Positions 4,546 to 30,448 of a stretch of DNA of 32,000 nt are shown here, one piece after another. Source of the stretch: an uncultured Chloroflexia bacterium (GTDB taxonomy: Bacteria > Chloroflexota > Ktedonobacteria > Ktedonobacterales > JADMIN01). The stretch is from the NCBI GenBank assembly GCA_963718915.1, contig CAVRAI010000009.1, forward strand, positions 180,001 through 212,000, written 5' to 3'. A model generated the notes under the pieces. It did no database searches. It worked only from the letters and a program-made list of their open reading frames with translations, and was not told where the DNA came from. How positions within the stretch are numbered: the first letter of the stretch is position 1; each line of letters starts with the position of its first letter. The position numbers and the translations under genes are program-made.

Positions 4546-5646
4546 TTGGGGCATAAAGTTCATCCCACCGGCTTCCGGTTGGGCGTCATCAAAGGATGGG
4601 ACTCGCGCTGGTACGCCGACAAGACGTACAAAGACCTGCTTGCCGAAGATCGCAAGCTGCGCGACATCATCCGCAAGCGGCTGGCTAACGCGGGCATCTC
4701 GCGTATCGAGATCGAGCGGGTGGCCGGAACGCAAATCGCCATCACCATTCACACCGCCAAGCCGGGCATTGTCATTGGCAAGAGTGGTGAGAGTGTCGAG
4801 CGGTTGCGCCAGGATCTGGAGCGCCAGACGAAGAAGAAGGTGCGCCTGAGCATCGTCGAGATACGCACCCCCGAACTGGACGCGTATCTTGTGGCGCGCA
4901 GCATCGCCGACCAGCTCGAAAAGCGCGTCTCGTTCCGCCGGGCGATGAAACAGGGCGTGCAGAAGACGATGCGCTCGGGCGCCAAGGGCATCAAGGTCGT
5001 GATGGGTGGGCGGCTCGGCGGCGCTGAGATTGCGCGTGTCGAGAAGGAGTCTGAGGGCAGCGTGCCGTTGCAGACACTCCGCGCCGACATTGACTACGGC
5101 CTGGCCGAGGCGCACACCACCTATGGTGTCATCGGCATCAAGGTCTGGATCTATCACGGCGACGTGCTGCCGGAACGCCAGGGCGAGCGGGTCAGCCAGG
5201 GTGTCTCGTCGCCCGCGGCTGAGCGGGGCGAACATGGCGAGCGGCGCGGCGGTCCCCGTGGTGATCGTGGCGACCGTGGCGACCGTGGCGACCGTGGTGA
5301 TCGTGGTGGTCCACGCGGCGAGCGCGGCGGTCCACGCTCAGGTGGCCCGGGTGGCGAGCGCGGTGATCGTGGTGGTCCACGAACGGGCGGCCCACGAACG
5401 GGTCCACGCTCCGGTGGCTCAGGTGGCGCGGGTGGCTCACGGCCCAGCGCGACTGGTGGCGCTCCTCGCGCCCCACGGACACCGCGTCCGCCCGCTGGCG
5501 GCGCACGGGGCGGGGCTGAGGGCGGCGCGTCGGCCAGCCAGGCTGTGCCACCGACACCAGCGGCCACTGATTCTGCCGCCAACAATTCCAATCATCAGCC
5601 GACGGACACCGCTTCGACGCCAGAGACGAACAAATCTGACTCGTAG
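4546..5646 (+). CDS. rpsC: 30S ribosomal protein S3 with ~150-aa Arg/Gly/Pro/Asp-rich C-terminal tail
   Basis: TTG start preceded by [19 protein letters not shown]...[11 protein letters not shown] (KH domain)...[10 protein letters not shown]. The tail [26 protein letters not shown] is encoded by 9-bp repeats. Confidence 0.95.
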
Positions 5647-5754: not shown

Positions 5755-6186
5755 ATGTTACTGGCGCCATCAAGAACCAAATATCGTAAACAACACCGCG
5801 GGCGTATGCGTGGCAAAGCCTATCGTGGCAGCACCATCGCCTTTGGTGAGTTCGCCTTGCAGGCGCTGGAGCCGGTCTGGTTGGAGGCGCGCCAGATCGA
5901 GGCCGCGCGTATCGCCATGACCCGTTTCATCAAGCGCGGTGGGAAGGTCTGGATTCGCGTCTTCCCTGATAAGCCTGTGACCTCCAAGCCAGCCGAGACC
6001 CGCATGGGTTCCGGCAAGGGCGCGCCCGACCACTGGGTTGCCGTGGTCAAGCCAGGGCGCATTCTCTTCGAGCTTGGCGGCGTCCGCGAAGACGTTGCCA
6101 AAGAGGCCATGCGGTTGGCGGCGAACAAGCTGCCCATTCAGACGAAATTTATCGTCCGGCAGGAGGCGGAAAGTGTCGAAGCTTAA
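5755..6186 (+). CDS. rplP: 50S ribosomal protein L16
   Basis: [22 protein letters not shown] start typical of L16 (ATG 5755). The tracked ORF start at 5680 adds a non-conserved 25 aa. Confidence 0.95.
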
Positions 6187-7667: not shown

Positions 7668-8309
7668 ATGGCGACACCAAAAGCGACACCAAAAGCGACA
7701 TCAAAGGCGACATCAAAGGCGACATCAAAGGCGGCGCCACAGGCGGCGTCAAACACGCCAAGACTGAAAGAGCGCTATCGCAAAGAGATCGTTCCGGCGC
7801 TCATGAAAGAATTCAGCTACTCGAATGTCATGCAGGCGCCCGTTGTCCATAAGATCGTGATCAATATCGGCATGGGCGAGGCGATCCAGAACGCGAAGGC
7901 GATGGATAACGCGGTACGCGACCTGAGCGATATTACCGGCCAGCGGCCAGTGGTCACCAAGGCCAAGCGCTCGGTGGCGTCGTTCAAGCTGCGCGAAGGC
8001 ATGGCCATCGGCTGCACCGTGACGCTCCGCGGCGCCCGTATGTATGACTTTCTGGATAAGCTGGTAAGTGTGGCGCTGCCACGCCTGCGCGACTTCCAGG
8101 GTGTCTCGCGCGACTCATTCGATGGGCGTGGCAACTATACCCTGGGCATTCGCGAGCAACTGGTCTTCCCGGAGATCAATTACGACAGAATCGACAAAGT
8201 GCGCGGCATGGAGATCACTATCGTGACCACCGCCCGCACCGACGAAGAGGGGCGTCACCTGCTCCAACTGGTGGGCATGCCGTTCAAGCATCAGCAGACC
8301 CAGGTGTAA
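7668..8309 (+). CDS. rplE: 50S ribosomal protein L5 with N-terminal ATPK/ATSK repeat
   Basis: [18 protein letters not shown]...[28 protein letters not shown] canonical L5. N-terminal 28 aa encoded by a 12-bp tandem repeat. Confidence 0.94.
7671..7754 (+). repeat. 12-bp tandem repeat (5 near-perfect + 2 degenerate copies) inside the rplE 5' end
   Basis: gcgacaccaaaa x2, gcgacatcaaag x3, then gcggcgccacag and gcggcgtcaaac. Read directly from the sequence. Confidence 0.85.
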
Positions 8310-8330
8310 GGCGTAAGGCGTAAGGCGTAA
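8307..8330 (+). repeat. 7-bp tandem repeat (TAAGGCG)x3+TAA starting at the rplE stop codon
   Basis: TAA at 8307, 8314, 8321 and 8328, so stops fall in all three + frames. Confidence 0.9.
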
Positions 8331-8462
8331 GCCAGCTATAACTCGTTTATGACGTTTGTTCTTCAAGAGTACCGCGATATGCGGGACTAAGGGCCCGGAA
8401 ACCGGTGTGAATCGTTGCACTGTTCCACCGAAGCCTGGTCCCTCGCCCTGGAGGGGGCAACG

Positions 8463-10227: not shown

Positions 10228-10989
10228 ATGCCAAAAATTGACGCATCGCGACTGAATCTGGAAGAGACCGTGGTTCAGGTCGCTCGCGTGGCGAAAGTGG
10301 TGAAGGGCGGACGTCGCTTCAGCTTCCGCGCGCTGGTGGTGGTCGGAGATCGCTCCGGCCATGTCGGAGTGGGTCTGGGCAAGGCCGGTGAGGTGCCAGA
10401 GGCCATTCGTAAGGGCGTCGAAGACGCCAAGAAGCACCTGATTACGGTGCCATTGCAGGGCACTACGATCCCGTTCCTCTCGCGTGGCCTCTTTGCCGCG
10501 TCTGAGGTGATGCTCAAACCAGCCGCCGCCGGTACCGGTGTGATCGCCGGTGGCGCGGTGCGCGCGGTGGTTGAGGCCGCTGGCATCCGTGATATTCTCA
10601 CGAAGTCGCTCGGTAGCTCGACCTCGCTCAATACCGTGATGGCCACGATGAATGGCCTGCGGGCGCTGGCATCCTTCGAGTCGGAGGCGGCCCGTCGCGG
10701 GCGCTCGGTCGCCGAGCTGGTGGGCGCGCGCCAGGCGCAGCGGATCTCTGATGAGGTCGCGGCAGCCGCAACGTATACGCCACCAGTGCGCGAGGAGCGC
10801 GAGGAGCGCGGCGGTGATCGTCGCCGTGGTGGACGTGGCGACGGTGGTGGCGCTGGTGGTCCAGGTCGCGGTGGTCCTGGTGGTCCTGGTGGCCCTGGTG
10901 GCCCAGGTCGCGGCGGTCCCGGTGGCCCTGGTCGTGGTGGCCCAGGCCGAGGTGGCAATCGCCCCGGTGGCGGTGGCCCGCGTCGCTAA
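10228..10989 (+). CDS. rpsE: 30S ribosomal protein S5 with ~80-aa Gly/Pro/Arg-rich C-terminal tail
   Basis: [42 protein letters not shown] canonical S5. Tail is [29 protein letters not shown]. Confidence 0.94.
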
Positions 10990-11256: not shown

Positions 11257-11756
11257 GACTCGACGAACTGCGGTCTCCCGCTGGAGCGCGCCATCGGCGC
11301 AAGCGTGTCGGTCGCGGGCATGGCTCCGGCCATGTGAAGACCTCTGGTCGCGGCCAGAAGGGCCAGAAAGCGCGTACCGGTTCGAGCATCCCGGCGCATT
11401 TTGAGGGCGGCCAGACACGGTTTGCGACCCGCATGCCGTACCTGGGTGGGTTCAAGAATCCGTTCCGCAAGGAATATATCGTCGTCAACCTGAGCGATCT
11501 CAAAGTCTTTGGGGTGGGCGAGCAGGTCAACACCACGACGCTGGCGGCGCATGGTCTTATCCGCGCGTCGCACACCAAGGGCATGCTCAAGGTGCTAGGC
11601 AACGGCAAGGTCGATCACGCGCTCAACATCACCGCGCACAAGGTCTCGGCCTCGGCGCGCGCCGCGATTGAGCAGGCCGGTGGCAGCATCACGTTGATCG
11701 CGATGCGCCAGACCCCGAAGACACGGCGCTCGGGCAAAGAGCCGCCCAAGTACTAG
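11253..11756 (+). CDS. rplO: 50S ribosomal protein L15
   Basis: [45 protein letters not shown] overlap with rpmD. Confidence 0.93.
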
Positions 11757-15519: not shown

Positions 15520-15887
15520 CAGAGGCTCGGATGGGTCAGCGTGTCTGGCGTCGGCTAGCGTCGGCCGCCGCTGACCCAGGGCGAGGCGCATCGCGGAGAT
15601 ACCTGGATGGTTGAGAGCAGTCGCGACTGGCGGTGCGAAGATGCTGATCGCATCGCGCACGGTTGCCCTCTGGGTGCGGGTGTCTCCGCTGGCGACTAAG
15701 CGGCGAAGTACTAGCGCGTGAGACGGTGCGTGTTGCACATGCGTCCAACTATAGAGGGTTGGGCATTGTCGCATTCCTCACCGCAGGTATGGCAGACGGG
15801 CATAGCGTGATATACATTCCTGTGACCTGAGGGCTGGCTTAGCCTGGGTGGCAGTGATTGGCATGATCTTGCGTGGGGGGGGGTGGA

Positions 15888-15917
15888 GTGATTGGCAGTG
15901 ATTGGCAGTGATTGGCA
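15888..15917 (+). repeat. 10-bp perfect tandem repeat GTGATTGGCA x3
   Basis: Read directly. There is one dispersed copy at 15854-15863 and a degenerate copy after 15918. The repeat sits 23 bp upstream of the rpmJ ATG. Confidence 0.85.
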
Positions 15918-15939
15918 GTATGGTTGGCGGAGGGTTCGC

Positions 15940-17028: not shown

Positions 17029-17469
17029 TCCGGCTTTCTGTCTGGCTCACGCCGGACTGACGCGGGATGATTTCTCTGGCGGCTGGCGCATATGCGCCGC
17101 TGCATAATGGATATTCCTGGATTCCCAGATACCGGCATGCGTTGCTCTGGTGACGTGCGCCGGACATTGCACGAAAGATGCGCGTCAAGCGACCTGGAGT
17201 GCGTGTTCGTGAGGCCCGCCTTCGTCCTGGGCGGTTCTGGACTGGCCCGCAAGTGAGTCAGTCGCATGGGGAACGTGTGTAGCCCGCTGCTTCCCCTGAT
17301 AGCCTCTCGTTGCACGCCGCGCGAGGAAGCGCGCGATGGCGTCTTTTGGGATGACGTGACTGTTTGTTCGCGCCTGCTGGCGCTGCGGCTGGTGTCGCGG
17401 GCGGCGAGATAGTGACGGCACGATTCCGAAAGCGCGCAACAGGCTCTCTGGCAACGGGCCAGGGCGCAT

Positions 17470-17499
17470 GAACAACGCTGAACAACGCTGAACAACGCC
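17470..17499 (+). repeat. 10-bp tandem repeat GAACAACGCT x3 (third copy has 1 mismatch) in the rpsK-rpsD spacer
   Basis: Read directly from the sequence. About 90 nt upstream of the rpsD ATG. Confidence 0.85.
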
Positions 17500-17585: not shown

Positions 17586-18215
17586 ATGGCTCGATATACT
17601 GGCCCTGTCTGCCGCCTGTGTCGGCGTGAGGGCGTCAAACTGTTTCTAAAGGGTGAGCGCTGCATGGGGCCGAAGTGCGGCATCGAGCGGCGCAACACGC
17701 GCCCCGGCCAGCACGGCCAGGCCCGCGGACGCAAGCCATCTGGCTATGCGCTCCAGTTGCGCGAGAAGCAAAAGGTCCGCCGCACGTATGGCGTGCTGGA
17801 GCGTCAGTTCCAGCGCTACTTTGACATCGCCGCGCGACGCCCCGGCAAGACCAGCGATAATCTGCTGCAAATGCTTGAAATGCGTCTCGATAATGTCGTC
17901 TATCGTATGGGCTTCGCCGATTCACGCGCCCAGGCCCGCCAGATCGTCACGCATGGTCATTTCCAGGTCAACGGACGCAAGTCCGATATCCCTTCGATGA
18001 TCCTGCGCCCCGACATGGAAGTGGGCGTGCGTGAGGGCAGCAAAAACCTGGAATATTTTAAGACACGCGCCTTGATGCTGGCGCAGAAGAATGTCCCGCC
18101 CTGGCTGCGTCTGGATACCAATGCGCTCTCGGGCAGAATTCTCGCGCTGCCGTCCCGGCAGGAGCTAACCCTGCCCTTCGATGAGGCGCTGGTCGTCGAG
18201 TACTATCAGCGATAG
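17586..18215 (+). CDS. rpsD: 30S ribosomal protein S4
   Basis: [26 protein letters not shown]...[22 protein letters not shown] canonical S4. Confidence 0.96.
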
Positions 18216-22726: not shown

Positions 22727-23737
22727 TTAGCAGTATGATGTGCCAGAGTTGTGGTAAAACGTCGCGAAGCTGTTCCCGCCCGACACAGTGGAATTGTCGG
22801 AAAGGTCAACACCATTTTGATACATATTCAGCTCAGCGTGCGAAAAGTACGTGAGCGGCTCGTTTACGTCGTTGGCATAGTTGCTGGATGCAGCACTTAA
22901 GGACCACCAAGAAACCGTGCCAAACGGCGTAAGCGCCCAGTTCTTGTTAGTGCCACAGCTTGTCCTCTCCACGATCCACTCGGCACTGTTGTTGCTAGGA
23001 ACAAAAGACTTGCTTGTCGACCAGTACTGCCCGTTGACATAATTGTACATGTACACGTACGACTTGCCCGGAACTGTCTGGTTGTAGTCCAAGGCTACGT
23101 AGACGGAATCGCCACATGCGACAGCGGGTCCGGCGTAGATGATGTTGGACCCAGGAACATATTCGTACCAGAACCGATAACCGTTCGCATGGTCTGTTTC
23201 TGTTCCAGCTTGCCAGAGGTTGCTAGAGTTGTAGCCTCCCAGTCCGATCCATTCCAGCGCGCGCTGTGAATTGCTTGTGCCCGAATAGCACGGCACATCC
23301 CACTCACCATTGATGAAATTAAACCCGCTCGCCGTGTCGGCATACCCCGACCAGTAGTCCCCGTTAGTTCCAGCGGTGCCAATGCCGGCGTGCGTGGAGA
23401 GTGTGTCAGTATGATACTTGCTGACAACCTCACCGCCGCAAATTCGTTGGCGAACATGTTGCATATTATCTACCCACGTCTGGTATGCTGGACCTTCGCT
23501 GGCATGCGGCAGCGGCAACCCGTAGAAGCGAAGTTGGGCTGCTGTAGCAGTTGTAGGATCCCAGCCCGTGGGCGGGCTCGGACACTCGCGACTTCCTGAA
23601 TACGTGAAACTGTCACCACTGCCGTTTTGCGACCGTGATGCTGCAAGAGCCTTCGGTGCAACTGTACTACCAACACCAATCGCTACAAAGCTCAGCGCCA
23701 GCGCCAAGAGTACTTTCATTGTACGTTTCGTCCCCAT
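22727..23737 (-). CDS. Secreted peptidase, G1 (eqolisin / scytalidoglutamic peptidase, Pfam Peptidase_A4-like) family candidate
   Basis: Signal peptide MGTKRTMKVLLALALSFVAIGVGSTVAPKALAAS after an AAAGGAG RBS. Motif series YWSGY / EWIGLGG / LWQAGT / FWYEYVP / AEWIVER parallels NWGGA / AWVGIDG / ILQTG / AWYEWYP / AEFIIED of scytalidoglutamic peptidase as I recall it. This includes candidate catalytic Gln (codon 23212-23210) and Glu (22969-22967). Confidence 0.7.
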   Translation of the reverse strand: MGTKRTMKVLLALALSFVAIGVGSTVAPKALAASRSQNGSGDSFTYSGSRECPSPPTGWDPTTATAAQLRFYGLPLPHASEGPAYQTWVDNMQHVRQRICGGEVVSKYHTDTLSTHAGIGTAGTNGDYWSGYADTASGFNFINGEWDVPCYSGTSNSQRALEWIGLGGYNSSNLWQAGTETDHANGYRFWYEYVPGSNIIYAGPAVACGDSVYVALDYNQTVPGKSYVYMYNYVNGQYWSTSKSFVPSNNSAEWIVERTSCGTNKNWALTPFGTVSWWSLSAASSNYANDVNEPLTYFSHAELNMYQNGVDLSDNSTVSGGNSFATFYHNSGTSYC

Positions 23738-23774
23738 GTTCGGGATGGCTCCTTTTTCTACATGGATCACTACC

Positions 23775-23980
23775 AATCGAGGGTCTTCCTGCCAACCGAG
23801 TAATCGAGGGTCTTCCTGCCAACCGAGTAATCGAGGGTCTTCCTGCCAACCGAGTAATCGAGGGTCTTCCTGCCAACCGAGTAATCGAGGGTCTTCCTGC
23901 CAACCGAGTAATCGAGGGTCTTCCTGCCAACCGAGTAATCGAGGGTCTTCCTGCCAACCGAGTAATCGAGGGTCTTCCTG
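23775..23980. repeat. Perfect 27-bp tandem repeat, 7 full copies + 17 bp
   Basis: + strand unit AATCGAGGGTCTTCCTGCCAACCGAGT begins at 23775, 23802, 23829, 23856, 23883, 23910, 23937 and 23964. I can see no mismatches. Confidence 0.95.
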
Positions 23981-24015
23981 CTTTCCGCTTATTGATGAGT
24001 TAATTCGATGGGCAA

Positions 24016-24044
24016 AGCATACATACATTTCTTCAAGATGTCAA
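24016..24044 (-). promoter_or_regulatory. Putative sigma70-type promoter of the peptidase gene
   Basis: Minus strand TTGACA (24044-24039), 17 nt spacer, TATGCT (24021-24016). It lies upstream of the 27-bp array. Confidence 0.45.
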
Positions 24045-24186: not shown

Positions 24187-25443
24187 TTATCTGGCGCGGC
24201 GGCCCTCGAAGCGCGCCAGCAGACGCGGCCAGAAGTAGGCTGCCAGCGCGCCCAGGATCAGCGCGACCGAGCCGGTGATGGAAAGGGCATTCGGGTCGAA
24301 CCAATTCTTGTTTTGGAAGACGTTGACCGCCAGCAACTGGAAGAGCCAGAGCGCCAGCGCGAAGCCGCCGATCACCGCGAAGCCGATGGCGGCGATAGTT
24401 GTCATGCGCGCCTGCGGGTCACGCGGCAGGATGGAACCCTGGAGCGTGCGCACCGAGAAGAACGCGAAGAAGCCAACCATCGCCAGCACCAACACCGAGA
24501 CAAGCCAGCCGCCAACCGCCGGAATGTTCCCGATGCCGAAGAGAATCAGGAAGGCGATCACGACCAGGATGCCGACCAGCACATAGGGCGCGCGCGTGCC
24601 AAAGGGGCTGAGCGCCATATTGACACCCGCCAGCGCCGGGGCCGCCCAGAGCAGCCGCCCGTTGAGCCGCTGCGCCGTCAGATACTCGCCGTAGGAGCGC
24701 CGCCACTGGCGCTTCTTGAAGTAGATGCGCCCGCGCAGACTGTGCGTATTGGCGCTATTGAGCGTCGGATTCTGCCGCTCGGCGGAGTCGAGCGCGTCAA
24801 TGGCGTCATCATAACGCCGCACGTCGACGAGCGCGTTCGCCTTGATAACCTCCGCCTGGGCCAGCGCGCCCGGACCGAGCGTCGTCCGGCCATAGCGAAT
24901 CGCCGAGTCGGTCGCCTGCACCGCGCCCGCCGGGTCTTTATCGCTCATCAGGATAACGGCGCGCATCAGGTGCGCGTTGGGCGAGCGCGGATCGAGGCGG
25001 CAGGCCTCTTCGATCTCGGCGCGCGCCACTTTGAAGTCGCGTTTGGAGGCCATCACCTCGGCCAGCTGCACATGCGCGTTGGCGTTGCGCGGGGCAAGCT
25101 GGATCGCCCGGCGCGCCGTCTCCTCAGCCTCGGGCGGGATACGGAAGCCGCTCTGCTGGGTCAGCGCGGCGGAAAGCGAGAGTAGCGCATCGACATTTTT
25201 GGGCTGCTCGCGCACCACCCGGCGGATTTCGGCGAGCGCCTCGGTGTTACGCCGCAGTTGCAGTAAAATCTGCCCCAGCAGCAGGCGCGCCGAGGCATCG
25301 TCGGGGCGGCGTTCCAGTTGTTTACGTGTCAGCCGCTCGGCCTCCACCGCATCGCCGTTGGCCAGCGCCAGCTTGGCCTTGCCCAGCGGGCCAGCGGGAA
25401 CCATACTGGCGCCCTGGTTGCCGCGAAACGACATTCGATTCAT
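24187..25443 (-). CDS. TPR-repeat protein with C-terminal multi-pass membrane domain
   Basis: The N-terminal ~250 aa are helical TPR-like repeats (AEAERLTRKQLERRPDDASARLLLGQILL..., NAHVQLAEVMASKRDFKVARAEIEEACRLDP...). The C-terminal part has about 4-5 hydrophobic helices (YVLVGILVVIAFLILFGIG, WLVSVLVLAMVGFFAFF, IAAIGFAVIGGFALALWLF, ITGSVALILGALAAYFW). Start chosen at ATG 25443 (MNRM). The N-terminus is uncertain, since the ORF is open to GTG 25551. Confidence 0.7.
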   Translation of the reverse strand: MNRMSFRGNQGASMVPAGPLGKAKLALANGDAVEAERLTRKQLERRPDDASARLLLGQILLQLRRNTEALAEIRRVVREQPKNVDALLSLSAALTQQSGFRIPPEAEETARRAIQLAPRNANAHVQLAEVMASKRDFKVARAEIEEACRLDPRSPNAHLMRAVILMSDKDPAGAVQATDSAIRYGRTTLGPGALAQAEVIKANALVDVRRYDDAIDALDSAERQNPTLNSANTHSLRGRIYFKKRQWRRSYGEYLTAQRLNGRLLWAAPALAGVNMALSPFGTRAPYVLVGILVVIAFLILFGIGNIPAVGGWLVSVLVLAMVGFFAFFSVRTLQGSILPRDPQARMTTIAAIGFAVIGGFALALWLFQLLAVNVFQNKNWFDPNALSITGSVALILGALAAYFWPRLLARFEGRRAR

Positions 25444-25760
25444 AAGGGTGTCTTCGTCCTTCTCCCCCCGGCGCCATCCGCGACAGTGAGGACACTGCAT
25501 GATGCAGGGAAAATAACAGCGCGCATCCACCAGGCATGCGTTGGGGCGCACATCACCTACTATTATACTCTTTGAGAGGATGGAGCGGAATCTTTCCGGG
25601 CCTAAAGCCTCAGGAGCGCCGCATTGGATGAGAGGCGCAATCCAGATTCATCACACAACCTTTGCCCGGCGCGCATCCTATCGCCAGACTCGCCAGATTA
25701 GCATCAGGGGCTAGCGTCAGGCGCGCCGCATGATCTCCGCAGTACCTGGCCGTGATTGCC

Positions 25761-25804
25761 GCAGAACACGCGCAGCATTTACGCAGGATATGCGCAGGAT
25801 GTGA
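25761..25804 (+). repeat. Four tandem degenerate 11-bp units (GCAGnnnnnnn)
   Basis: gcagaacacgc / gcagcatttac / gcaggatatgc / gcaggatgtga. This is the inverted counterpart of the array at 26003-26112. Confidence 0.55.
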
Positions 25805-26002
25805 GGAAGTTTGGCGCCGCCGGAACCCAGATGGCGTGGCGCGTGGGGCATGGTGAGGAACCAGAGGATATTTACAGGGTGATGTCGGAACGGCGGCGCA
25901 CGGAAAGAATTATGCGGCGTCAGGCGTCCCAGAGAGAGATGGATGCGACGCCAGGGATGCCGCCAGCATCTATCCCAGGTCTATCTCAGGTGCGCCCGCA
26001 TC

Positions 26003-26112
26003 GTGCATGTTTCTTGCGTATATCCTGCGTATATCATGCGCGTTTCTCGCGTGTTCCTCGCATAGTTCTCGCATATTCCGGGCATAGCGCGGGCATTGCG
26101 GCAGGCATTGCA
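26003..26112 (+). repeat. About ten tandem degenerate 11-bp units with GC(A/G)T at fixed phase
   Basis: gtGCATgtttc ttGCGTatatc ctGCGTatatc atGCGCgtttc tcGCGTgttcc tcGCATagttc tcGCATattcc ggGCATagcgc ggGCATtgcgg caGGCATtgca. The array ends 17 bp before the ATG at 26129. Confidence 0.65.
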
Positions 26113-26128
26113 GAAAAGAGTGATTCCC

Positions 26129-28702
26129 ATGGATGTTGTGCAATTTGGACGGTGGCTTGGGGAGCGCCGTCGCGCCTGCGGCTGGACCAGCCAGCGCGCG
26201 CTGATGGATAGCGCGCTGGAACACCCCCACACACGCGATCTGGGGATCTCGGAGGCGTTTCTTGCGCGTCTGGAGGCTGGATTGCTGGCCTATCCCTTCC
26301 GCGGCGCGGTACGGAAACGTGTACTGGCATTAACCTGGCTGCTGTGCAAGTCGTCGCGTCAGACACGTGAATATCTGCGACTGGCCGGGCTGGCCGATCT
26401 GAGTGTTGAAGAACAGGAGATGGTGCGCACGGTGCTGGCGTCATTCAGCGATGCTACCCCTGTCGCGCCGCCGCTGCTGCTGCCAGCGCGCCCGCCACGT
26501 CTGCTGGGGCGAGCCGCCGCGCTCAACGAACTGCTGCGCACGCTGCGTACCGTGGAGACCGGGCTGTGTGTGGTGACGGGCATGCCCGGCGTCGGCAAGA
26601 GCGCGCTCGCCGCCGAGGCGCTGCACCTGATTGCCGCCGACGAGCGCGCGCGCCACGAGCTCTTCCCCGATGGCATCGTCACATTCAGCGGCGTCGGGCG
26701 GCGTGGCATGGGTGGCCTGCTGGCCCTGCTCGACGAACTGTGCGCGGTCTTCACCGCCGAGTCGTCGTCGGCGCGCGCCTCCACGCGACGTAGCGAGAAA
26801 CCCGCCTCCTCAGGCGAGCGGCTGGCGCGGCCCGATGTGGCTGGCACGCTCAACCGCACGCGCTCGGTGGTCGCCGAAAAGCGGTTTTTGCTGCTGCTCG
26901 ACGATATGGACGCGCGCTTCCCGCTCCGCGACGCGCTCGACGCCGTGTTGGCGGCCGGGCACGCCGCTGGCGGTGTCGGTCCAGCTGAGGCTGAGCGGCG
27001 CGTGGTGCTGGTGACGAGCCGGTATGCGCCGGAGGCGGCGCTGATTCGCATTCGTCAGGATGTGTCGCCACTCGATGCCGATGCGGCGCTGGCGCTATTC
27101 ACGGCGCTGCTTCAGCGCGACCTGACGCCGAGTGAGACGCTGCACGCGCGCGCGATCTGCATGGCGGTAGGCAATCTCCCGCTGGCGATTGAACTGGCGG
27201 CAACAGCGGCGATCTCCGAAGGTATCCCGCTGCCGCTGCTGGCGGCTCGACTGGCCAGCCACGCGCTCGACATCTCCGCCGATAGCCGTCGCGAGCTACG
27301 ATTGCGGCTGGAGCGCGAGCTGGACGCGGTAGATACTGAGGTGCGCGAGTTGTTCGCCCTGCTGGCGCTGCTGGGGACGCCCGCGTTTACCCTCGAAGCG
27401 GCGGCGGCCCTACGTGACGCGCGCTGGCCGGAGCCAACGGCTACCGACGAGGTCATTCCTGAACTGGCGGCGCTGGCCCCCGATGACGTGGCTGATGCGG
27501 AGACGGCGGAAGATCGGCTGGCGCGTACCGCGGCGCTGCTGGGCCAGCTAGTGCGTCATTCGTTGTTGCGTATCGAAGGCGACGACGCTGGTGGCCATGA
27601 TGATGACGATGATAATGGAGACGATGGCGATGACGATGACGATGGACCTGGCCCGGGGAGCGGCGTAGGCTTGCGTTATCACCTGCAGCCGCTGGTCTAT
27701 GCCTGCGCGCGCGAGCGGATGGAGCAACTAGACCCCGCTATGCGCGAGCGCGCGCTGCACAATGCGCAGCGCTATGCCTTGAGCTATCTGTGCAAACATG
27801 AGGAGCATCCTCTCGCGCTGGCGCGTCAGCGTGACTTCCTACTGGCGATGGTGGCCCGCGCGGCACGGGGCGGACAGCACGCGCAGGTGCAGCGGTTTGT
27901 CTTCGGGCTGACCGCCTCGCAACACAATCTCCTTGCCCTTCGCGAACGCAGCGCCAACCTGTTCACGCTGGCCATTCGTAGCAGCCGTCTGTTACATGAC
28001 TCGATGTCCGAGGCGCGGCTACTCAACCGGCTGGGGCTGCTCTACTACTACGACGGCTCGACGGCGCAGGCCCGGACGGCGTGGGAGACGAGCGCCAACC
28101 TCTGCGCGGAGTTAGCGGCGCGCGGCATCGCCAGCGGTGGGCTGGCGTGGTATCCGCTCTACAATCTGGCCCAGTTGACCTGGGAGCTTGGCGAGCTTGA
28201 GACGGCGCAACAGTATGCCGAGATGAGCCTTCATCACGCGCGAGAACACTGCCCGACGATGGTGCTGCCATCGCTGCTGACTCGCGCCATGGTCGCCCGC
28301 GCGTGTGGCGATCTCGTCGCGGCCAGGGCCGATCTGGAAGCGTGTCGCGATCTGAAGACCGCGCCGATGGAGGTTGGGCCGGTGGCGACGCTGATCGCCG
28401 GACTGCGGCCATGTATCGAGGCGGAGATGGCGCGGGTGGAAGGGGTCTACCGCCACTCGGTCGCGGCAACCGAGAAGAGTGTGGCCTATTTTCAGGCCGA
28501 GGATGACCTGTTGAGCGCGGCCAATGTGCTGTTGGAGCAGGCGCGCTATGCCGAAGTCCAGGATTTTCGCGCCGATGCGCGGCTCTTCGCGTCGCGTGCG
28601 GTGGCGCTCGGACGCAAGGCGCATGCCGAATTCGTCCAGGCGCGCGGCAAGGAGCTATTACTCCGCCTGAACAACAGCACGAGTTGCGCTCAGCCCGGCT
28701 GA
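26129..28702 (+). CDS. STAND-class NTPase: N-terminal XRE-type HTH + NB-ARC ATPase + C-terminal TPR-like repeats
   Basis: MDVVQFGRWLGERRRACGWTSQRAL (HTH). Walker A GMPGVGKS (26579-26602). Walker B FLLLLDDMD (~26885-26911). VLVTSR. GNLPLAIELAA (the NB-ARC GxPLA motif). Poly-Asp insert. C-terminal LLNRLGLLYYYDG.., YNLAQLTWELGELETAQQYAE.. repeats. Confidence 0.85.
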   Translation: MDVVQFGRWLGERRRACGWTSQRALMDSALEHPHTRDLGISEAFLARLEAGLLAYPFRGAVRKRVLALTWLLCKSSRQTREYLRLAGLADLSVEEQEMVRTVLASFSDATPVAPPLLLPARPPRLLGRAAALNELLRTLRTVETGLCVVTGMPGVGKSALAAEALHLIAADERARHELFPDGIVTFSGVGRRGMGGLLALLDELCAVFTAESSSARASTRRSEKPASSGERLARPDVAGTLNRTRSVVAEKRFLLLLDDMDARFPLRDALDAVLAAGHAAGGVGPAEAERRVVLVTSRYAPEAALIRIRQDVSPLDADAALALFTALLQRDLTPSETLHARAICMAVGNLPLAIELAATAAISEGIPLPLLAARLASHALDISADSRRELRLRLERELDAVDTEVRELFALLALLGTPAFTLEAAAALRDARWPEPTATDEVIPELAALAPDDVADAETAEDRLARTAALLGQLVRHSLLRIEGDDAGGHDDDDDNGDDGDDDDDGPGPGSGVGLRYHLQPLVYACARERMEQLDPAMRERALHNAQRYALSYLCKHEEHPLALARQRDFLLAMVARAARGGQHAQVQRFVFGLTASQHNLLALRERSANLFTLAIRSSRLLHDSMSEARLLNRLGLLYYYDGSTAQARTAWETSANLCAELAARGIASGGLAWYPLYNLAQLTWELGELETAQQYAEMSLHHAREHCPTMVLPSLLTRAMVARACGDLVAARADLEACRDLKTAPMEVGPVATLIAGLRPCIEAEMARVEGVYRHSVAATEKSVAYFQAEDDLLSAANVLLEQARYAEVQDFRADARLFASRAVALGRKAHAEFVQARGKELLLRLNNSTSCAQPG

Positions 28703-28864: not shown

Positions 28865-30448
28865 ATGTCAGCCGCGCAGCCAGACGATTCCTGCCCCCGC
28901 CTTGCCGAGCTAATCGCCGCCCTCTCACTGGCCACTGACCTTGGTATCGGTCAGCCGATGGGATATACCCTGCGCATCTGCCTGCTTGCCCTTCACCTCG
29001 GCGCTGCCCTCGGCCTCAGCACGCACGAGCTATCTGAGGTCTACTACGTTGCGCTGCTAAGCGGAGTCGGTTGTACCGCTGATGCCCACGAGTCTGCGAT
29101 GTTGTTTGGTAATGATGTGACTGCGACAGCGCAACTTGCCACCATTGATATGGCCAGCCACCGAGAAATGCTCAACTTCCTGTTGCGACATGCAGGCGCA
29201 GGCAAGAGTCCATGGCGACGCTTGCGGATGACAGCCACTGCACTATCTGAGGGATCAGCGGGAGCGCGCGAGCCACTGGCTGCCCACTGTGAATCAGCCC
29301 GCATGCTGGCAGGCCAGTTTGGAATGGGCGACGGAGTCTCGCTGGGACTCAGCCACATCTTTGAGCGTTGGGATGGACACGGTTGGCCCTATCAACTCAA
29401 AGGTGAGACCAGCCAACGCTCGGCACGGATTGTCCAACTCGCGCGAGACGCAATAGTGTTTTACCGTATGGGAGGCGTTGAGGCTGCCGTGGCAGTGGTT
29501 CGCCAGCGGATGAGTGCCAAGTATGATCCCCACATAGCCCGGAGTTTCTGCCAGGAAGCGCCTCACCTGCTGGCCGCCACGGAGAGCCAGTCAGCCTGGG
29601 AGGCTGTGCTTGATAGAGAACTCGGCGCGCAGCCGCGTATGACAGATGGGCAGTTCGATACTGCCACTCAAGCCATCGCTGACTTCGTTGACCTGAAATC
29701 GCCCTGGCTGACCGGACATTCGCGTGGCGTTGCGGAGTTGGCGGCCGCCGCCGCTCGACGGCTTGGCTGGCAGGAACGGGCAGTCAGCATGGTACAGAGA
29801 GCAGGCAATCTTCACGATCTTGGACGAGTGGGTATATCGAGTGGCATCTGGGACAAGGCTGGGCCATTGACCGATGAGGAGTGGGAGCAGGTGCGACTGC
29901 ATTCCTACTATACTGAGCGGGTGTTGTCCCGCCCTGATGCTTTGGCGCGCCTGGGCAGCCTGGCTGCGGGGCATCACGAACGGCTCGATGGGTCTGGCTA
30001 TCACCGCCACATCCCGGCCACTCTGCTCTCTGAAGGTGCGCGGCTGTTGGCTGCCGCCGATTCCTACCACGCGATGATCGCGGCGCGGCCATACCGCCCG
30101 GCATCTACGCCCGACGTTGCTACCGCTACGCTACGCGATGAGGTTCGGCAGGGGCGGCTTGATGGCGAGGCGGTCAACGCTGTGCTGGCCGCGGCGGGCC
30201 ACAACGTCCAGGTGGCAAAGCGCGCATGGCCCGCCGGACTGAGCGAGCGCGAGGTTGAGGTGTTGCGTCTGGTCGCTCACGGCCTCTCCAGGCGCCAGAT
30301 AGGCCAACAGCTCTGTATCTCTGAGAAGACCGCCGATCATCACATCCAGCATATCTATACCAAGTGCGGCGTCTCGACACGGGCATCAGCCACACTCTTC
30401 GCCATGCAACATCGCCTCCTCAGCGACCTGGCCACCCTCACAGAATAG
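28865..30448 (+). CDS. Tandem HD-GYP-like domains (degenerate + near-canonical) fused to a LuxR-type HTH
   Basis: GGAGG RBS. Second module: GHSRGVAELA...NLHDLGRVGI...HHERLDGSGYHRH (29972-30004, GYH instead of GYP). First module has FERWDGHGWPYQLKGE but lacks the HD pair (LLSGVGCTAD). C-terminus LSEREVEVLRLVAHGLSRRQIGQQLCISEKTADHHIQHIYTKCGV is a LuxR/GerE HTH. Confidence 0.85.
   Translation: MSAAQPDDSCPRLAELIAALSLATDLGIGQPMGYTLRICLLALHLGAALGLSTHELSEVYYVALLSGVGCTADAHESAMLFGNDVTATAQLATIDMASHREMLNFLLRHAGAGKSPWRRLRMTATALSEGSAGAREPLAAHCESARMLAGQFGMGDGVSLGLSHIFERWDGHGWPYQLKGETSQRSARIVQLARDAIVFYRMGGVEAAVAVVRQRMSAKYDPHIARSFCQEAPHLLAATESQSAWEAVLDRELGAQPRMTDGQFDTATQAIADFVDLKSPWLTGHSRGVAELAAAAARRLGWQERAVSMVQRAGNLHDLGRVGISSGIWDKAGPLTDEEWEQVRLHSYYTERVLSRPDALARLGSLAAGHHERLDGSGYHRHIPATLLSEGARLLAAADSYHAMIAARPYRPASTPDVATATLRDEVRQGRLDGEAVNAVLAAAGHNVQVAKRAWPAGLSEREVEVLRLVAHGLSRRQIGQQLCISEKTADHHIQHIYTKCGVSTRASATLFAMQHRLLSDLATLTE

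Follow-up and report, generated by a model that had tools for sequence, protein, structure and literature searches.

The window analysed here, a stretch of 32,000 nucleotides of a Ktedonobacteria genome, carries a gene for a STAND ATPase of 857 aa (26129..28702, plus strand) and, divergent from it, a gene for a TPR protein identified by Pfam (24187..25443, minus strand; probable start ATG at 25443). The DNA between the two genes holds two arrays of 11-bp units in inverted orientation: a left array (25738..25803, plus strand) and a right array (26003–26112), which is separated from the STAND start codon at 26129 by 16 bases (26113–26128).

An 11-bp period of both arrays had been proposed in a sequence-only reading of this DNA and was confirmed by autocorrelation against dinucleotide shuffles. 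Self-identity at lag 11 is 0.70 in 25761–25804 (z 5.7) and 0.65 in 26003–26112 (z 8.3), and lags 22 and 33 are likewise raised. The same lag analysis found no 11-bp period in the 198 bp separating the arrays, and no other lag-11 array exists in the 32-kb window. Other perfect short tandem repeats are present in intergenic DNA of the window (15887–15919, 17469–17498 and 8302–8331). In the right array the ten units described before were recovered, each with GC(A/G)T at the same phase. Of the left array four units had been recognized, with CGCAG at 25760, 25771, 25782 and 25793; a fifth unit, at 25738, two turns upstream of 25760, had been overlooked. The expectation that the period would create spurious ORFs was correct: the 151-aa ORF at 25756–26211 is not kept as a reading frame in relatives, since it reads ATG TAA in L001 and has a frameshifting indel in L002. 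A small upstream ORF (MRRQGCRQHL...) was rejected on the same two observations.

The perfect 12-bp inverted repeat reported for the two arrays, TACGCAGGATAT and ATATCCTGCGTA, is present and is nested in a 32-nt pair with 84% complementarity; among 1000 dinucleotide shuffles of the intergenic DNA, eight contained a perfect inverted repeat of at least 12 bp. Relatives have an imperfect version (left ACGCAGAATGT, right ACGCAGGATAT), and the occurrence of the repeat is explained by both arrays sharing one unit family. The pair flanks 228 bp that include a promoter-like element, which had raised the question of whether it marks the ends of an invertible promoter segment (25792–26019). We give this explanation almost no credence: the scan of window ORFs turned up no recombinase gene, the Pfam-matched ones being ribosomal or otherwise unrelated, a single orientation was seen in eight distinct close-clade sequences (10 assemblies) and six distant orthologues, and the perfect repeat is not maintained.

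To compare the units, a weight matrix trained on the left arrays of other orthologues was applied to the window. The left array scores 14.5–17.0 bits, while the only passes in the right array are those at 26019 (14.0 bits) and 26030 (9.5 bits), both on the minus strand, so that the left-type look is retained in 2 of 10 right-array units and the remaining eight stay below 8 bits. The two arrays thus have a common period and unit family, yet they are not equivalent, the right one being mostly degenerate.

The unit consensus of the left array is CGCAGnATnTG (logo of 50 units), with a box core CGCAG, or CTGCG on the other strand, once per 11-bp turn. On the minus strand the left boxes read wwTYCTGCG, an orientation that in related loci faces a leftward promoter. 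The left array lies upstream of the STAND gene, on the same strand, in all sampled orthologues (68–100% protein identity), and three of its CGCAG pentamers are invariant in 10 orthologues (75–100% identity). Exact runs of at least three CGCAG at 11-bp spacing occur once per orthologue locus, on the strand of the gene and 243–369 bp before its ATG; the 39 sources scanned (the window and 38 loci) contain no further run of this kind. The array is also retained in L002 and L003, where the left neighbour is an SBP_bac_5 gene instead of the TPR gene; these two loci differ from each other by one 9-bp unit.

The spacing between the left array and the octamer GAAAGAAT (25903..25910, plus strand; invariant alignment columns) is nearly fixed. 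In 13 orthologues the last CGCAG box starts 109–110 bp before GAAAGAAT; in one lineage (L002/L003) this distance is 121 bp, with an 11-bp insertion seen in L003. The sequence of this spacer is itself poorly conserved, and the distance from GAAAGAAT to the ATG varies from 112 to 246 bp.

The right array is limited to the closest clade (about 89% identity or more); orthologues at 68–79% identity lack it but have the left array and the leader described below. Its first four and last two units are conserved. Right units 1–4 (26003..26046, plus strand) have an identity of 0.94 in the close clade, compared with 0.72 at neutral, four-fold degenerate sites, and carry rightward-facing boxes TTGCG (26014), CTGCG (26025) and ATGCG (26036), followed just past 26046 by TCGCG (26047); the TCGCG variant also occurs within paralogue arrays of L026, L034 and L038. 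Right units 5–8 (26047..26090, plus strand) are fast-evolving and variable in copy number, with an identity of 0.61, below the neutral benchmark, and 8–11-bp indels among close relatives. The last two units, GGGCATTGCGG and CAGGCATTGC, and the RBS region AGAAAAGAGTG that follows them (26091..26128, plus strand) have an identity of 0.89, and TGCAGAAAG is invariant in all orthologues. Two –10-like hexamers lie in units 5–8, CATAGT (26061–26066) and CATATT (26072–26077), each 20 nt past a box; CATAnT at this distance from a box is also present in L009, L005, L053 and L018 and is not present in L010 or L011. These hexamers are putative –10 elements; they start with C, stand 20 rather than 21–22 nt from the box and fall in the fast-evolving part.

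The presence of other intergenic tandem repeats in the window, together with the 9-bp unit difference between L002 and L003, makes it conceivable that the arrays are functionless by-products of a lineage-wide tendency to short tandem duplication. For units 5–8, which evolve neutrally and gain and lose units, this explanation stands. It is contradicted by the left array, whose pentamers are invariant and whose spacing is fixed in orthologues with as little as 68% protein identity, and by the identity of right units 1–4 relative to four-fold degenerate sites. Duplication accounts for the origin of the variable middle and not for the retention of the rest; as an explanation of the arrays as a whole we regard it as highly improbable.

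Several conserved elements lie between the arrays. The block (A/C)GAA(A/G)CC(C)GA, which reads CGGAACCCAGA in the window (25821..25831, plus strand), occupies conserved columns of the alignments, is supported by the register table as well and begins 28 bp downstream of the start of the last left box. A second block, GAGGAACCAGAGGATATT (25855..25876, plus strand), is conserved in the close clade only, where its mean pairwise identity is 0.90 versus 0.72 at four-fold degenerate sites and 0.60–0.71 in the flanking spacers. The octamer GAAAGAAT, present in 13 of 14 orthologues (its counterpart in L001 is GAAAGTAT), is a candidate extended –10 element of the STAND gene, with G at –14, A at –11 and T at –7. 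A scan for consensus sigma-70 promoters over 25300–26400 returned no site; the scan is uninformative here, because even the evident TATAAT of the TPR gene escaped it. An ECF-type promoter (GAAAGA-N16-CGTC) was ranked below the extended –10 reading; it would leave GGCGTCCC outside the transcript, which clashes with the wobble-tolerant pairing of GGCGTCCC to a hairpin loop. The spacings of a sigma-54 site (GG-N10-GC) and of a sigma-H-like –35/–10 pair do not fit, as judged by eye. A hairpin closing around GAAAGAAT was dropped, with 72% of the cells paired and a register that varies among sequences.

Downstream of GAAAGAAT lies a leader element (25923..25973, plus strand) with an identity of 0.94 in the close clade. 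It contains a hairpin (25939–25946 with 25966–25973) around a conserved loop, GACGCCAGGGAYGCCGCCA; compensating changes are seen at four of the eight pairs, and 92.9% of the cells are paired. The segment GGCGTCCC (25923–25930) may pair with loop bases 25954–25961, making a pseudoknot possible. This second helix is 95.5% paired, and its only changes are from G-C to G-U, which are tolerated on the plus strand alone. Rfam gave no match at gathering thresholds in the window, and under permissive settings 25500–26200 gave hits at chance level only (E above 6); no tRNA or tmRNA was found. Resemblances to the leader loop motif in paralogue loci were discarded as coding sequence resembling an ABC-permease gene.

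The covarying hairpin just upstream of the right array suggests that this region is transcribed. A transcript starting near GAAAGAAT would carry the right array at about +85 to +195, ending at the RBS, and the array could then act as RNA, as a repeat-rich 5′ leader that is protein-bound or folded and controls STAND translation. We find this very unlikely. Folding of the leader including the right array is no better than that of shuffles (z –1.28 and +0.16), RNAalifold detects no conserved pairing in the right array, the middle units drift neutrally, and an 11-nt period is what DNA geometry would lead one to expect. Long-range RNA pairing of the two arrays was rejected as well, being no better than in shuffles and absent from distant orthologues.

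The STAND protein has an HTH-like N-terminal domain (residues 1–107), an NB-ARC/AAA_16 NTPase (Pfam AAA_16, E-value 8.4e-10; NB-ARC, 1e-4) and a C-terminal TPR region whose helices span residues 521–849. All the parts by which STAND proteins are recognized are present, namely a P-loop NOD (NB-ARC/NACHT/AAA_16 type), a helical arm after it and a sensor made of repeats. The best PDB matches of its AlphaFold model (pLDDT 84.7) are Apaf-1, a TPR-containing STAND protein, plant NLRs and CED-4. Residues 1–107 are modelled as seven helices with no strands (pLDDT 91.9). The 19 best Foldseek matches of this domain are all XRE-type, among them C.BclI, HipB, SinR, C.AhdI, ClgR and 434 Cro, but the matches are weak (E 0.9–5; TM-scores up to 0.75, target-normalized). 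XRE/Cro-C1 domains are bundles of five helices, the second and third of which make up the HTH; the model has a 10-residue insert between its helices 2 and 3. The predicted recognition helix is S41–G51 (26249–26281, plus strand), with Ala43 encoded at 26255–26257. Searches of the N-terminal domain for an HTH in Pfam and in PDB sequences gave no match, nor did searches for a GerE (LuxR-type) HTH at E up to 10 or for Trans_reg_C and BTAD in Pfam. At its N-terminus the protein has the HTH-like domain, the only DNA-binding-like one in it, and no nuclease, protease or NADase effector, and PADLOC defence profiles gave no match at E up to 0.01, so that the protein does not classify as an anti-phage STAND (Avs) by these profiles.

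All loci compared were chosen for carrying a STAND gene, and a protein-guided scan of metagenome contigs added one usable locus. CGCAG is not generally enriched upstream of paralogues (1.71 vs 1.78 per kb). Arrays of paralogues were found by searching both strands and the variant core CGCGG: phased CGCGGAA arrays, with boxes 11 or 22 bp apart, exist in 11 paralogue loci. They are located at the promoters of ABC-transporter operons of the SBP_bac_5 type, within or next to which the STAND gene lies. Six of these arrays precede an ORF of 572–577 aa, which is an SBP_bac_5 gene in all four cases tested, and four lie 339–382 bp before the STAND gene itself (L028, L048, L051 and L055); the eleventh, in L025, was assigned to neither kind of target. 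The end of the nearest box is followed by TANNNT after 21–22 nt in 10 of the 11 arrays, and also in L024, L041 and L002. Throughout the family, the boxes are oriented according to the direction of the promoter that they serve. Several paralogue loci have no array in the DNA examined.

The fourth base of the box tracks residue 43 of the STAND protein. Ala43 goes with CGCAG in the orthologue group, in L024, L041 and L054 and in a separate clade, L043; Asp43 goes with CGCGG in 11 loci. An exception is L022, where Ala43 is found with CGCCG boxes. In a neighbour-joining tree the main Ala43 group is one clade, so that the number of independent events behind the covariation is about two and not fifteen.

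From these comparisons we consider it probable that the repeats are box arrays for the N-terminal XRE-type HTH of the adjacent NB-ARC/TPR STAND ATPase. The sequence-only reading had proposed cooperative, MalT-like binding by this HTH; the support that such binding has gained is comparative and comes from the co-travel of arrays and gene, the paralogue promoters and the covariation at residue 43. The boxes could instead be read by another transcription factor encoded elsewhere, for example a response regulator of the OmpR/PhoB type, with the STAND gene and the transporter operons as its targets. Regulators of this type typically read 11-bp direct repeats. Head-to-tail units of a 5-nt core and a 6-nt spacer are what winged-helix response regulators and SARPs classically bind (PMC10936776). 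Pfam finds no HTH in the N-terminal domain of the STAND protein, and this domain hardly varies among paralogues, an unusual property for regulators with targets of their own. Against another factor stand the covariation of a box base with a residue of the STAND recognition helix in two clades, the location of the arrays, always within a few kb of a STAND gene across many different neighbourhoods, and the fact that no response-regulator gene is conserved beside them. On balance, we judge this alternative rather unlikely.

A further alternative, suggested in the sequence-only reading, is a DNA loop: in the close clade, one oligomer would bridge the opposed arrays, closing ∼230–270 bp around the GAAAGAAT promoter and the leader, and would repress or gate the STAND gene. 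The inverted arrangement of the arrays agrees with this, as does the distance of 232 bp between the centres of the best boxes (21.1 × 11), which puts them on nearly the same helix face; right units 1–4 are under selection, and STAND proteins multimerize (PMC4381067). However, the right array is absent at 68–79% identity, where the left array and leader remain, and it has only two good boxes. Since it is clade-specific and largely degenerate, looping cannot be a conserved mechanism, and since box orientation tracks promoter direction across the family, opposed arrays are explained without it. Looping in the close clade appears decidedly unlikely.

Binding of the boxes by the STAND HTH, the reading we prefer, would most likely make the locus part of an activator system like that of MalT or AfsR, recurring across Ktedonobacteria; the literature searched contained no description of such a MalT-like switch. 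What the sequences show is the period of the arrays, their conservation and spacing, the geometry of the promoters in relatives and the covariation of protein and box. Binding by the STAND protein, the sign of the regulation and the transcription starts are what we infer from the comparisons. In the proposed mechanism, a triggered sensor would cause the ATPase to multimerize, and its DNA-binding heads would fill the row of boxes along one helix face. The promoter-proximal box, ending 21–22 bp before the –10 element, would replace the –35 element and turn transcription on. As a rule, the targets would be the regulator's own gene and SBP_bac_5 ABC-transporter operons next to it, and the substrate of these transporters is the candidate inducer. 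The boxes of the left array point leftward and in L002/L003, L024 and L041 would serve the divergent gene for a solute-binding protein. The window lacks that gene and a usable leftward –10 (no leftward TANNNT is found for its left array), yet the boxes are retained, at their fixed 110 bp from the conserved promoter-like element and leader of the STAND gene; they now probably feed back on expression of the regulator itself. By the family rule, the left array faces the wrong way for the STAND gene, on which it would act from ∼110 bp upstream. Transcription of the STAND gene is predicted to start near 25918, downstream of GAAAGAAT, near 26084, downstream of CATATT, or at both; a leftward start from the left array is expected in genomes of the L002 type and not in this lineage. 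The right array would be a younger, clade-specific expansion of the 11-bp unit just upstream of the RBS, in which units 1–4, with their rightward boxes under selection, may form a box-dependent STAND promoter and the middle units would be drifting duplication products.

In its fullest form, the proposal is that Ktedonobacteria have a large, undescribed family of XRE-HTH/NB-ARC/TPR proteins, functional analogues of MalT built from different parts, which would switch on neighbouring ABC-transporter operons of the peptide/oligosaccharide type and their own genes through 11-bp-phased boxes; Ala43 would specify an A/T pair and Asp43 a G/C pair at box position 4, and at this locus a new structured leader (hairpin or pseudoknot) and a fast-evolving box array would additionally tune the regulator's own promoter. 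For all of these parts to hold jointly we see slightly less than an even chance. STAND ATPases have been studied chiefly as immune and cell-death switches, and to our knowledge few are understood as transcription factors (MalT, AfsR, GutR). If the proposal is true, an XRE-type N-terminal head on an Apaf-1-like NTPase would be a third independently assembled design. It would bring with it a predicted binding site, a geometry for the promoter and a specificity rule that depends on a single residue. Ktedonobacteria have large genomes and complex development, and we know of almost no characterized regulators in them; the system would offer a first regulatory handle on this group and a function for a family with several copies per genome. 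The variable copy number of the right array illustrates how, among closely related lineages, a promoter might be built or retuned through tandem duplication of one binding unit.

Among known systems, MalT of Escherichia coli resembles the proposed one: it is an ATP-dependent STAND regulator with a repeat-type sensor, several short boxes and a binding-protein-dependent ABC transporter as target. Its nearest box lies at about –37/–38, and its box clusters are opposed in the divergent malE–malK region. In the related loci the nearest box likewise lies over the –35 position; that of the window's left array does not. The HTH of MalT is C-terminal and of the LuxR/GerE type, whereas the one proposed here is N-terminal and XRE-like, with GerE absent; the NTPase is of the NB-ARC (Apaf-1/CED-4) type by Pfam and the best structure matches, MalT not being among those matches; the MalT box sequence is unrelated, and the spacing here is strictly 11 or 22 bp. 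MalT multimerizes for cooperative binding of its boxes (PMC4381067).

AfsR and other large SARPs of Streptomyces share with this protein an N-terminal DNA-binding domain, an NB-ARC-type NOD and TPRs. SARP/AfsR repeats are 11 or 22 bp apart, as are the direct repeats here, and overlap the –35 element, activation replacing the –35 contact (PMC10936776). The SARP 3′ repeat is 8 bp from the –10 element (PMC10936776), whereas box ends here are 21–22 nt from TANNNT. SARPs bind DNA through a winged helix of the OmpR type with a BTA domain, unlike the all-alpha domain predicted here, which has no beta wing, and arrays here have 3–6 units versus 2–3 in SARPs. The pho boxes of PhoB/PhoP and the GlnR boxes are also 11-nt head-to-tail direct repeats with a short conserved core, a variable number of which are stacked over the –35 element or upstream of it. 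The proteins that bind them are winged-helix regulators activated by phosphorylation. The arrays described here have no linked gene of that kind, and their box covaries with the HTH of the STAND protein. In parC of plasmid R1, a promoter lies between two blocks of 11-bp repeats, to which one autoregulating protein, ParR, binds cooperatively; the parC repeats are all direct, and ParR is of the ribbon-helix-helix type, its gene being accompanied by that of an actin-like partition ATPase. The present locus differs in being chromosomal, without partition genes and with inverted arrays. A replication origin or partition site was also considered and rejected; the locus has no dnaA or par genes and adjoins ribosomal-protein operons.

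The divergent TPR gene is not tied to the arrays. It has a conserved promoter of its own, with a perfect TATAAT on the minus strand (25563–25568) and a conserved leader, and no box was read 21 nt upstream of this TATAAT; in L002/L003, where the gene is not adjacent, the array persists. Its orthologues are of 416–419 aa in most loci and of 458 aa in L010.

The two rows of 11-bp repeats lie in the 685-bp intergenic region that separates a TPR gene (24187-25443, minus strand) from a divergent STAND gene (26129-28702) in a Ktedonobacterales genome (Chloroflexota). Measured against dinucleotide-preserving shuffles, the period noticed in the sequence-only reading is real in both rows: lag-11 identity reaches 0.70 (z 5.7) across 25761-25804 and 0.65 (z 8.3) across 26003-26112, with harmonics at lags 22 and 33. 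The same lag test found no 11-bp period in the 198 bp between the arrays, and a sliding scan found no further lag-11 array in the whole window. In the left array the pentamer CGCAG (a 'box') starts at 25760, 25771, 25782 and 25793, and a fifth copy lies at 25738, two turns upstream of 25760. The perfect 12-bp inverted repeat is also there, nested in a 32-nt pair of 84% complementarity; perfect inverted repeats of at least 12 bp arose in 8 of 1000 shuffles. An invertible promoter segment bounded by this repeat, offered earlier as an alternative, has next to no chance of being correct: the inverted repeat is not conserved, the segment has a single orientation in the close-clade sequences and distant orthologues compared, and no recombinase gene was found among the scanned ORFs of the window. 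Neither array is a copy of the other. On a weight matrix derived from left arrays at other orthologous loci, the left units of the window reach 14.5-17.0 bits; two right-array units pass (14.0 and 9.5 bits) and all others stay below 8 bits.

A pattern found across the STAND family gives these repeats their identity. At 33 paralogue loci (29-50% identity), a search for phased CGCnGnA on either strand turned up arrays of CGCGGAA(A/T) units 11 or 21-22 bp apart. At six loci (L026, L029, L033, L034, L035 and L038) the array is located 150-320 bp 5' of an ORF of 572-577 aa, which starts a same-strand gene run with the STAND gene last; the four of these ORFs that were tested are all SBP_bac_5 genes, and the run in L026 was confirmed to include an ABC-permease gene. 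At L028, L048, L051 and L055 the gene 3' of the array is the STAND gene itself, at a distance of 339-382 bp. On the promoter strand the units read wwTTCCGCG, and in 10 of 11 arrays the end of the nearest box is 21 or 22 nt from a TANNNT hexamer (TAAGAT, TATGAT, TATTAT, TATCAT or TATGCT), which we estimate to occur by chance at one of the three allowed offsets with a frequency of about 5% per locus. The nearest box therefore lies where a -35 element would be expected, as at promoters that depend on MalT, PhoB or SARPs for activation. CTGCG boxes that face a divergent gene, for an SBP or a lipoprotein, show the same geometry in L002 (TATGCT), L024 (TACCCT) and L041 (TACGCT), members of the clade that holds the STAND gene of the window. 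At the remaining locus of the 11, L025, a CGCGGAA array (11392-11434) with TATGCT at 21 nt points to the minus strand, where no ORF of at least 110 aa was found downstream of it.

The STAND protein combines an NB-ARC/AAA_16 NTPase with a TPR sensor. Structures that match its model (pLDDT 84.7) are those of Apaf-1, a TPR-containing STAND protein, plant NLRs and CED-4; none of the known defence-system profiles matched the protein. An N-terminal HTH was ascribed to it earlier. Residues 1-107, the most conserved portion across the family, form an all-alpha bundle without beta strands when modelled alone (pLDDT 91.9), and their best 19 PDB matches are all of XRE/Cro-type HTH (C.BclI, HipB, SinR, C.AhdI, ClgR and 434 Cro among them); against this, the matches are weak (E-values of about 1) and Pfam gives none. 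The predicted recognition helix is S41-E-x-F-L-A-R-L-E-A-G51, and its residue 43 varies with the box. Ala43 accompanies CGCAG boxes throughout the orthologue group and at L024, L041 and L054. It recurs in a separate clade (L043/L044), of which L043 carries a pair of CGCAG units with 11-bp spacing in what reads as AT-rich DNA. Asp43 is found in all 11 loci with CGCGG boxes, none of which has a clean CGCAG array; L022, with Ala43 and CGCCG boxes, is an exception. Chemically, it is nothing unusual for Ala to face the thymine of an A/T pair or for Asp to face the cytosine of a G/C pair. Since the main Ala43 group is a single neighbour-joining clade, the covariation represents about two independent events. 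Together with the phased boxes at paralogue promoters, it favours the earlier proposal that the units are bound by the STAND HTH, a binding predicted here from sequence. That an unlinked, different factor binds the boxes is unlikely, as this would leave the covariation unexplained.

MalT multimerises for cooperative box binding (PMC4381067), and AfsR, with an N-terminal DNA-binding domain followed by NOD and TPR, has repeats 11 or 22 bp apart across the -35 region (PMC10936776). The system described here would work like both, sharing cooperative boxes and an ABC transporter as target with the former, and domain order and 11/22-bp repeats over -35 with the latter; binding, transcription start sites and the sign of regulation are predictions. 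It belongs to neither family: the STAND protein lacks the LuxR HTH of MalT and the winged helix and BTA domain of AfsR, and the distance from repeat to -10 differs from that in SARPs. No description of this STAND family or of its boxes was found in the literature searched.

Among orthologues (14 distinct sequences with upstream DNA, 68-94% protein identity), every one carries a run of 3-6 CGCAG units, spaced at exactly 11 bp on the strand of the STAND gene, 243-369 bp upstream of its ATG; in the 39 sources scanned no such run occurs outside this position. Three pentamers are invariant in an alignment of 10 sequences, and 50 units give the consensus CGCAG-n-A-T-(G/T)-(T/C)-(G/A). L002/L003 have an SBP_bac_5 gene in place of the TPR gene on the left, and there too the array lies beside the STAND gene. 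From the start of the last box to the invariant GAAAGAAT (25903-25910 in the window) there are 109-110 bp in 13 sequences and, through an 11-bp insertion, 121 bp in L002/L003; from GAAAGAAT to the ATG the distance varies from 112 to 246 bp. The spacer between last box and GAAAGAAT diverges freely and shows no RNA covariation, so that a length fixed modulo one helical turn points to DNA geometry. GAAAGAAT itself fits a candidate extended -10 element (G at -14, A at -11, T at -7).

The left array of the window faces leftward, and the SBP gene that it serves in L002/L003 is missing here; there is no TANNNT 20-22 nt beyond the leftward-facing boxes and no box at the expected position of the TPR-gene promoter. 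These boxes are nonetheless conserved, at a fixed 110 bp from GAAAGAAT, and must matter for the STAND gene, on which the array, in reversed orientation, would act most simply by autoregulation. In all orthologues the leader and promoter of the TPR gene (25444-25600) are strongly conserved, with a perfect TATAAT (minus strand, 25563-25568), a palindrome, CTGCATGATGCAG (25497-25509), and GGAATCTTTCC (25588-25598), which is GGAAAGATT on the minus strand and so resembles GGAAAGAAT upstream of the STAND gene.

Downstream of GAAAGAAT, 25939-25946 pairs with 25966-25973, four of the eight pairs covarying, around a conserved 19-nt loop. GGCGTCCC (25923-25930) is able to pair with this loop, and every change in that second helix is G-C to G-U, tolerated on the plus strand only. 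The element (25923-25973), which matched no Rfam family, looks like a transcribed leader, possibly a pseudoknotted 5' leader of the STAND gene.

Only a close clade, of at least about 89% identity, has the right array (the window, L009, L010, L005, L011, L016, L018 and L053); at 68-79% identity its place is taken by short irregular GCAT/GCGT repeats, or by nothing. Bridging of the two opposed arrays into a DNA loop, proposed earlier, is workable within that clade only and is quite unlikely. Against a neutral benchmark of 0.72 (four-fold degenerate sites), mean pairwise identity in the close clade is 0.84 for the left array, 0.86 for the GAAAGAAT region, 0.94 for the leader hairpin, 0.94 for right units 1-4 and 0.89 for right units 9-10 with the ribosome-binding site; right units 5-8 fall to 0.61 and carry indels of 8-11 bp. 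Selected ends thus enclose a drifting middle of variable copy number, which makes the right array a mosaic. Pure duplication debris would suit units 5-8 only and is highly improbable as an account of the arrays; a role of the right array as RNA, lacking structural support, is very unlikely. The conserved units hold rightward-facing boxes (TTGCG, CTGCG, ATGCG and TCGCG), with CATAGT or CATATT 20 nt past boxes 3 and 4 and a similar hexamer in four of the other seven sequences from the close clade, a weak hint of a possible promoter that depends on the boxes, about 45-55 nt upstream of the ATG.

The genome is prone to short tandem duplication, perfect 10-bp or 7-bp repeats being present in three further intergenic regions of the window. 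These lie in ribosomal-protein-operon DNA: AGTGATTGGC (x3.3, 15887-15919, a loose fourth copy at 15853) is 20 bp upstream of an L36-like start, TGAACAACGC (x3, 17469-17498) is about 90 bp upstream of an ORF at 17586-18215, and AGGCGTA (x4.3, 8302-8331) begins within the L5-gene stop codon. The leaders of L002 (5820-5850) and L003 (2588-2608), two samples with an identical STAND protein, differ by one 9-bp unit (acagagatg), which indicates ongoing change in copy number. In other family members, too, short tandem duplications of 9, 8 and 11 bp (L024, about 5915-5945; L049, about 5955-5975; L002, 5980-6000) lie directly upstream of the STAND ribosome-binding site, the position of the right array in the window.

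The rest of the locus begins with ribosomal-protein operons (1 to ~22000; rpoA, L17, TruA, L13 and S9 in the gene order), followed by a Peptidase_A4 gene (22727-24028, minus strand) in which a 27-bp unit repeated 7.7 times at 100% identity (23775-23981) encodes a perfect 9-residue repeat that looks recent or homogenised. Downstream of the STAND gene are an HD_5 (HD-GYP-like) and GerE HTH fusion (28865-30448) and then a hydrolase; the fusion gene is also 3' of the STAND gene in L004 and L011 and is missing from L001, L002, L010 and L013, and is therefore not a fixed partner. GC-rich tandem repeats of 9/18/66 bp (5256-5428) and 9/15/42 bp (10788-10979), within or beside ribosomal-protein genes such as the extended S3 ORF (4546-5646), may encode low-complexity tails.
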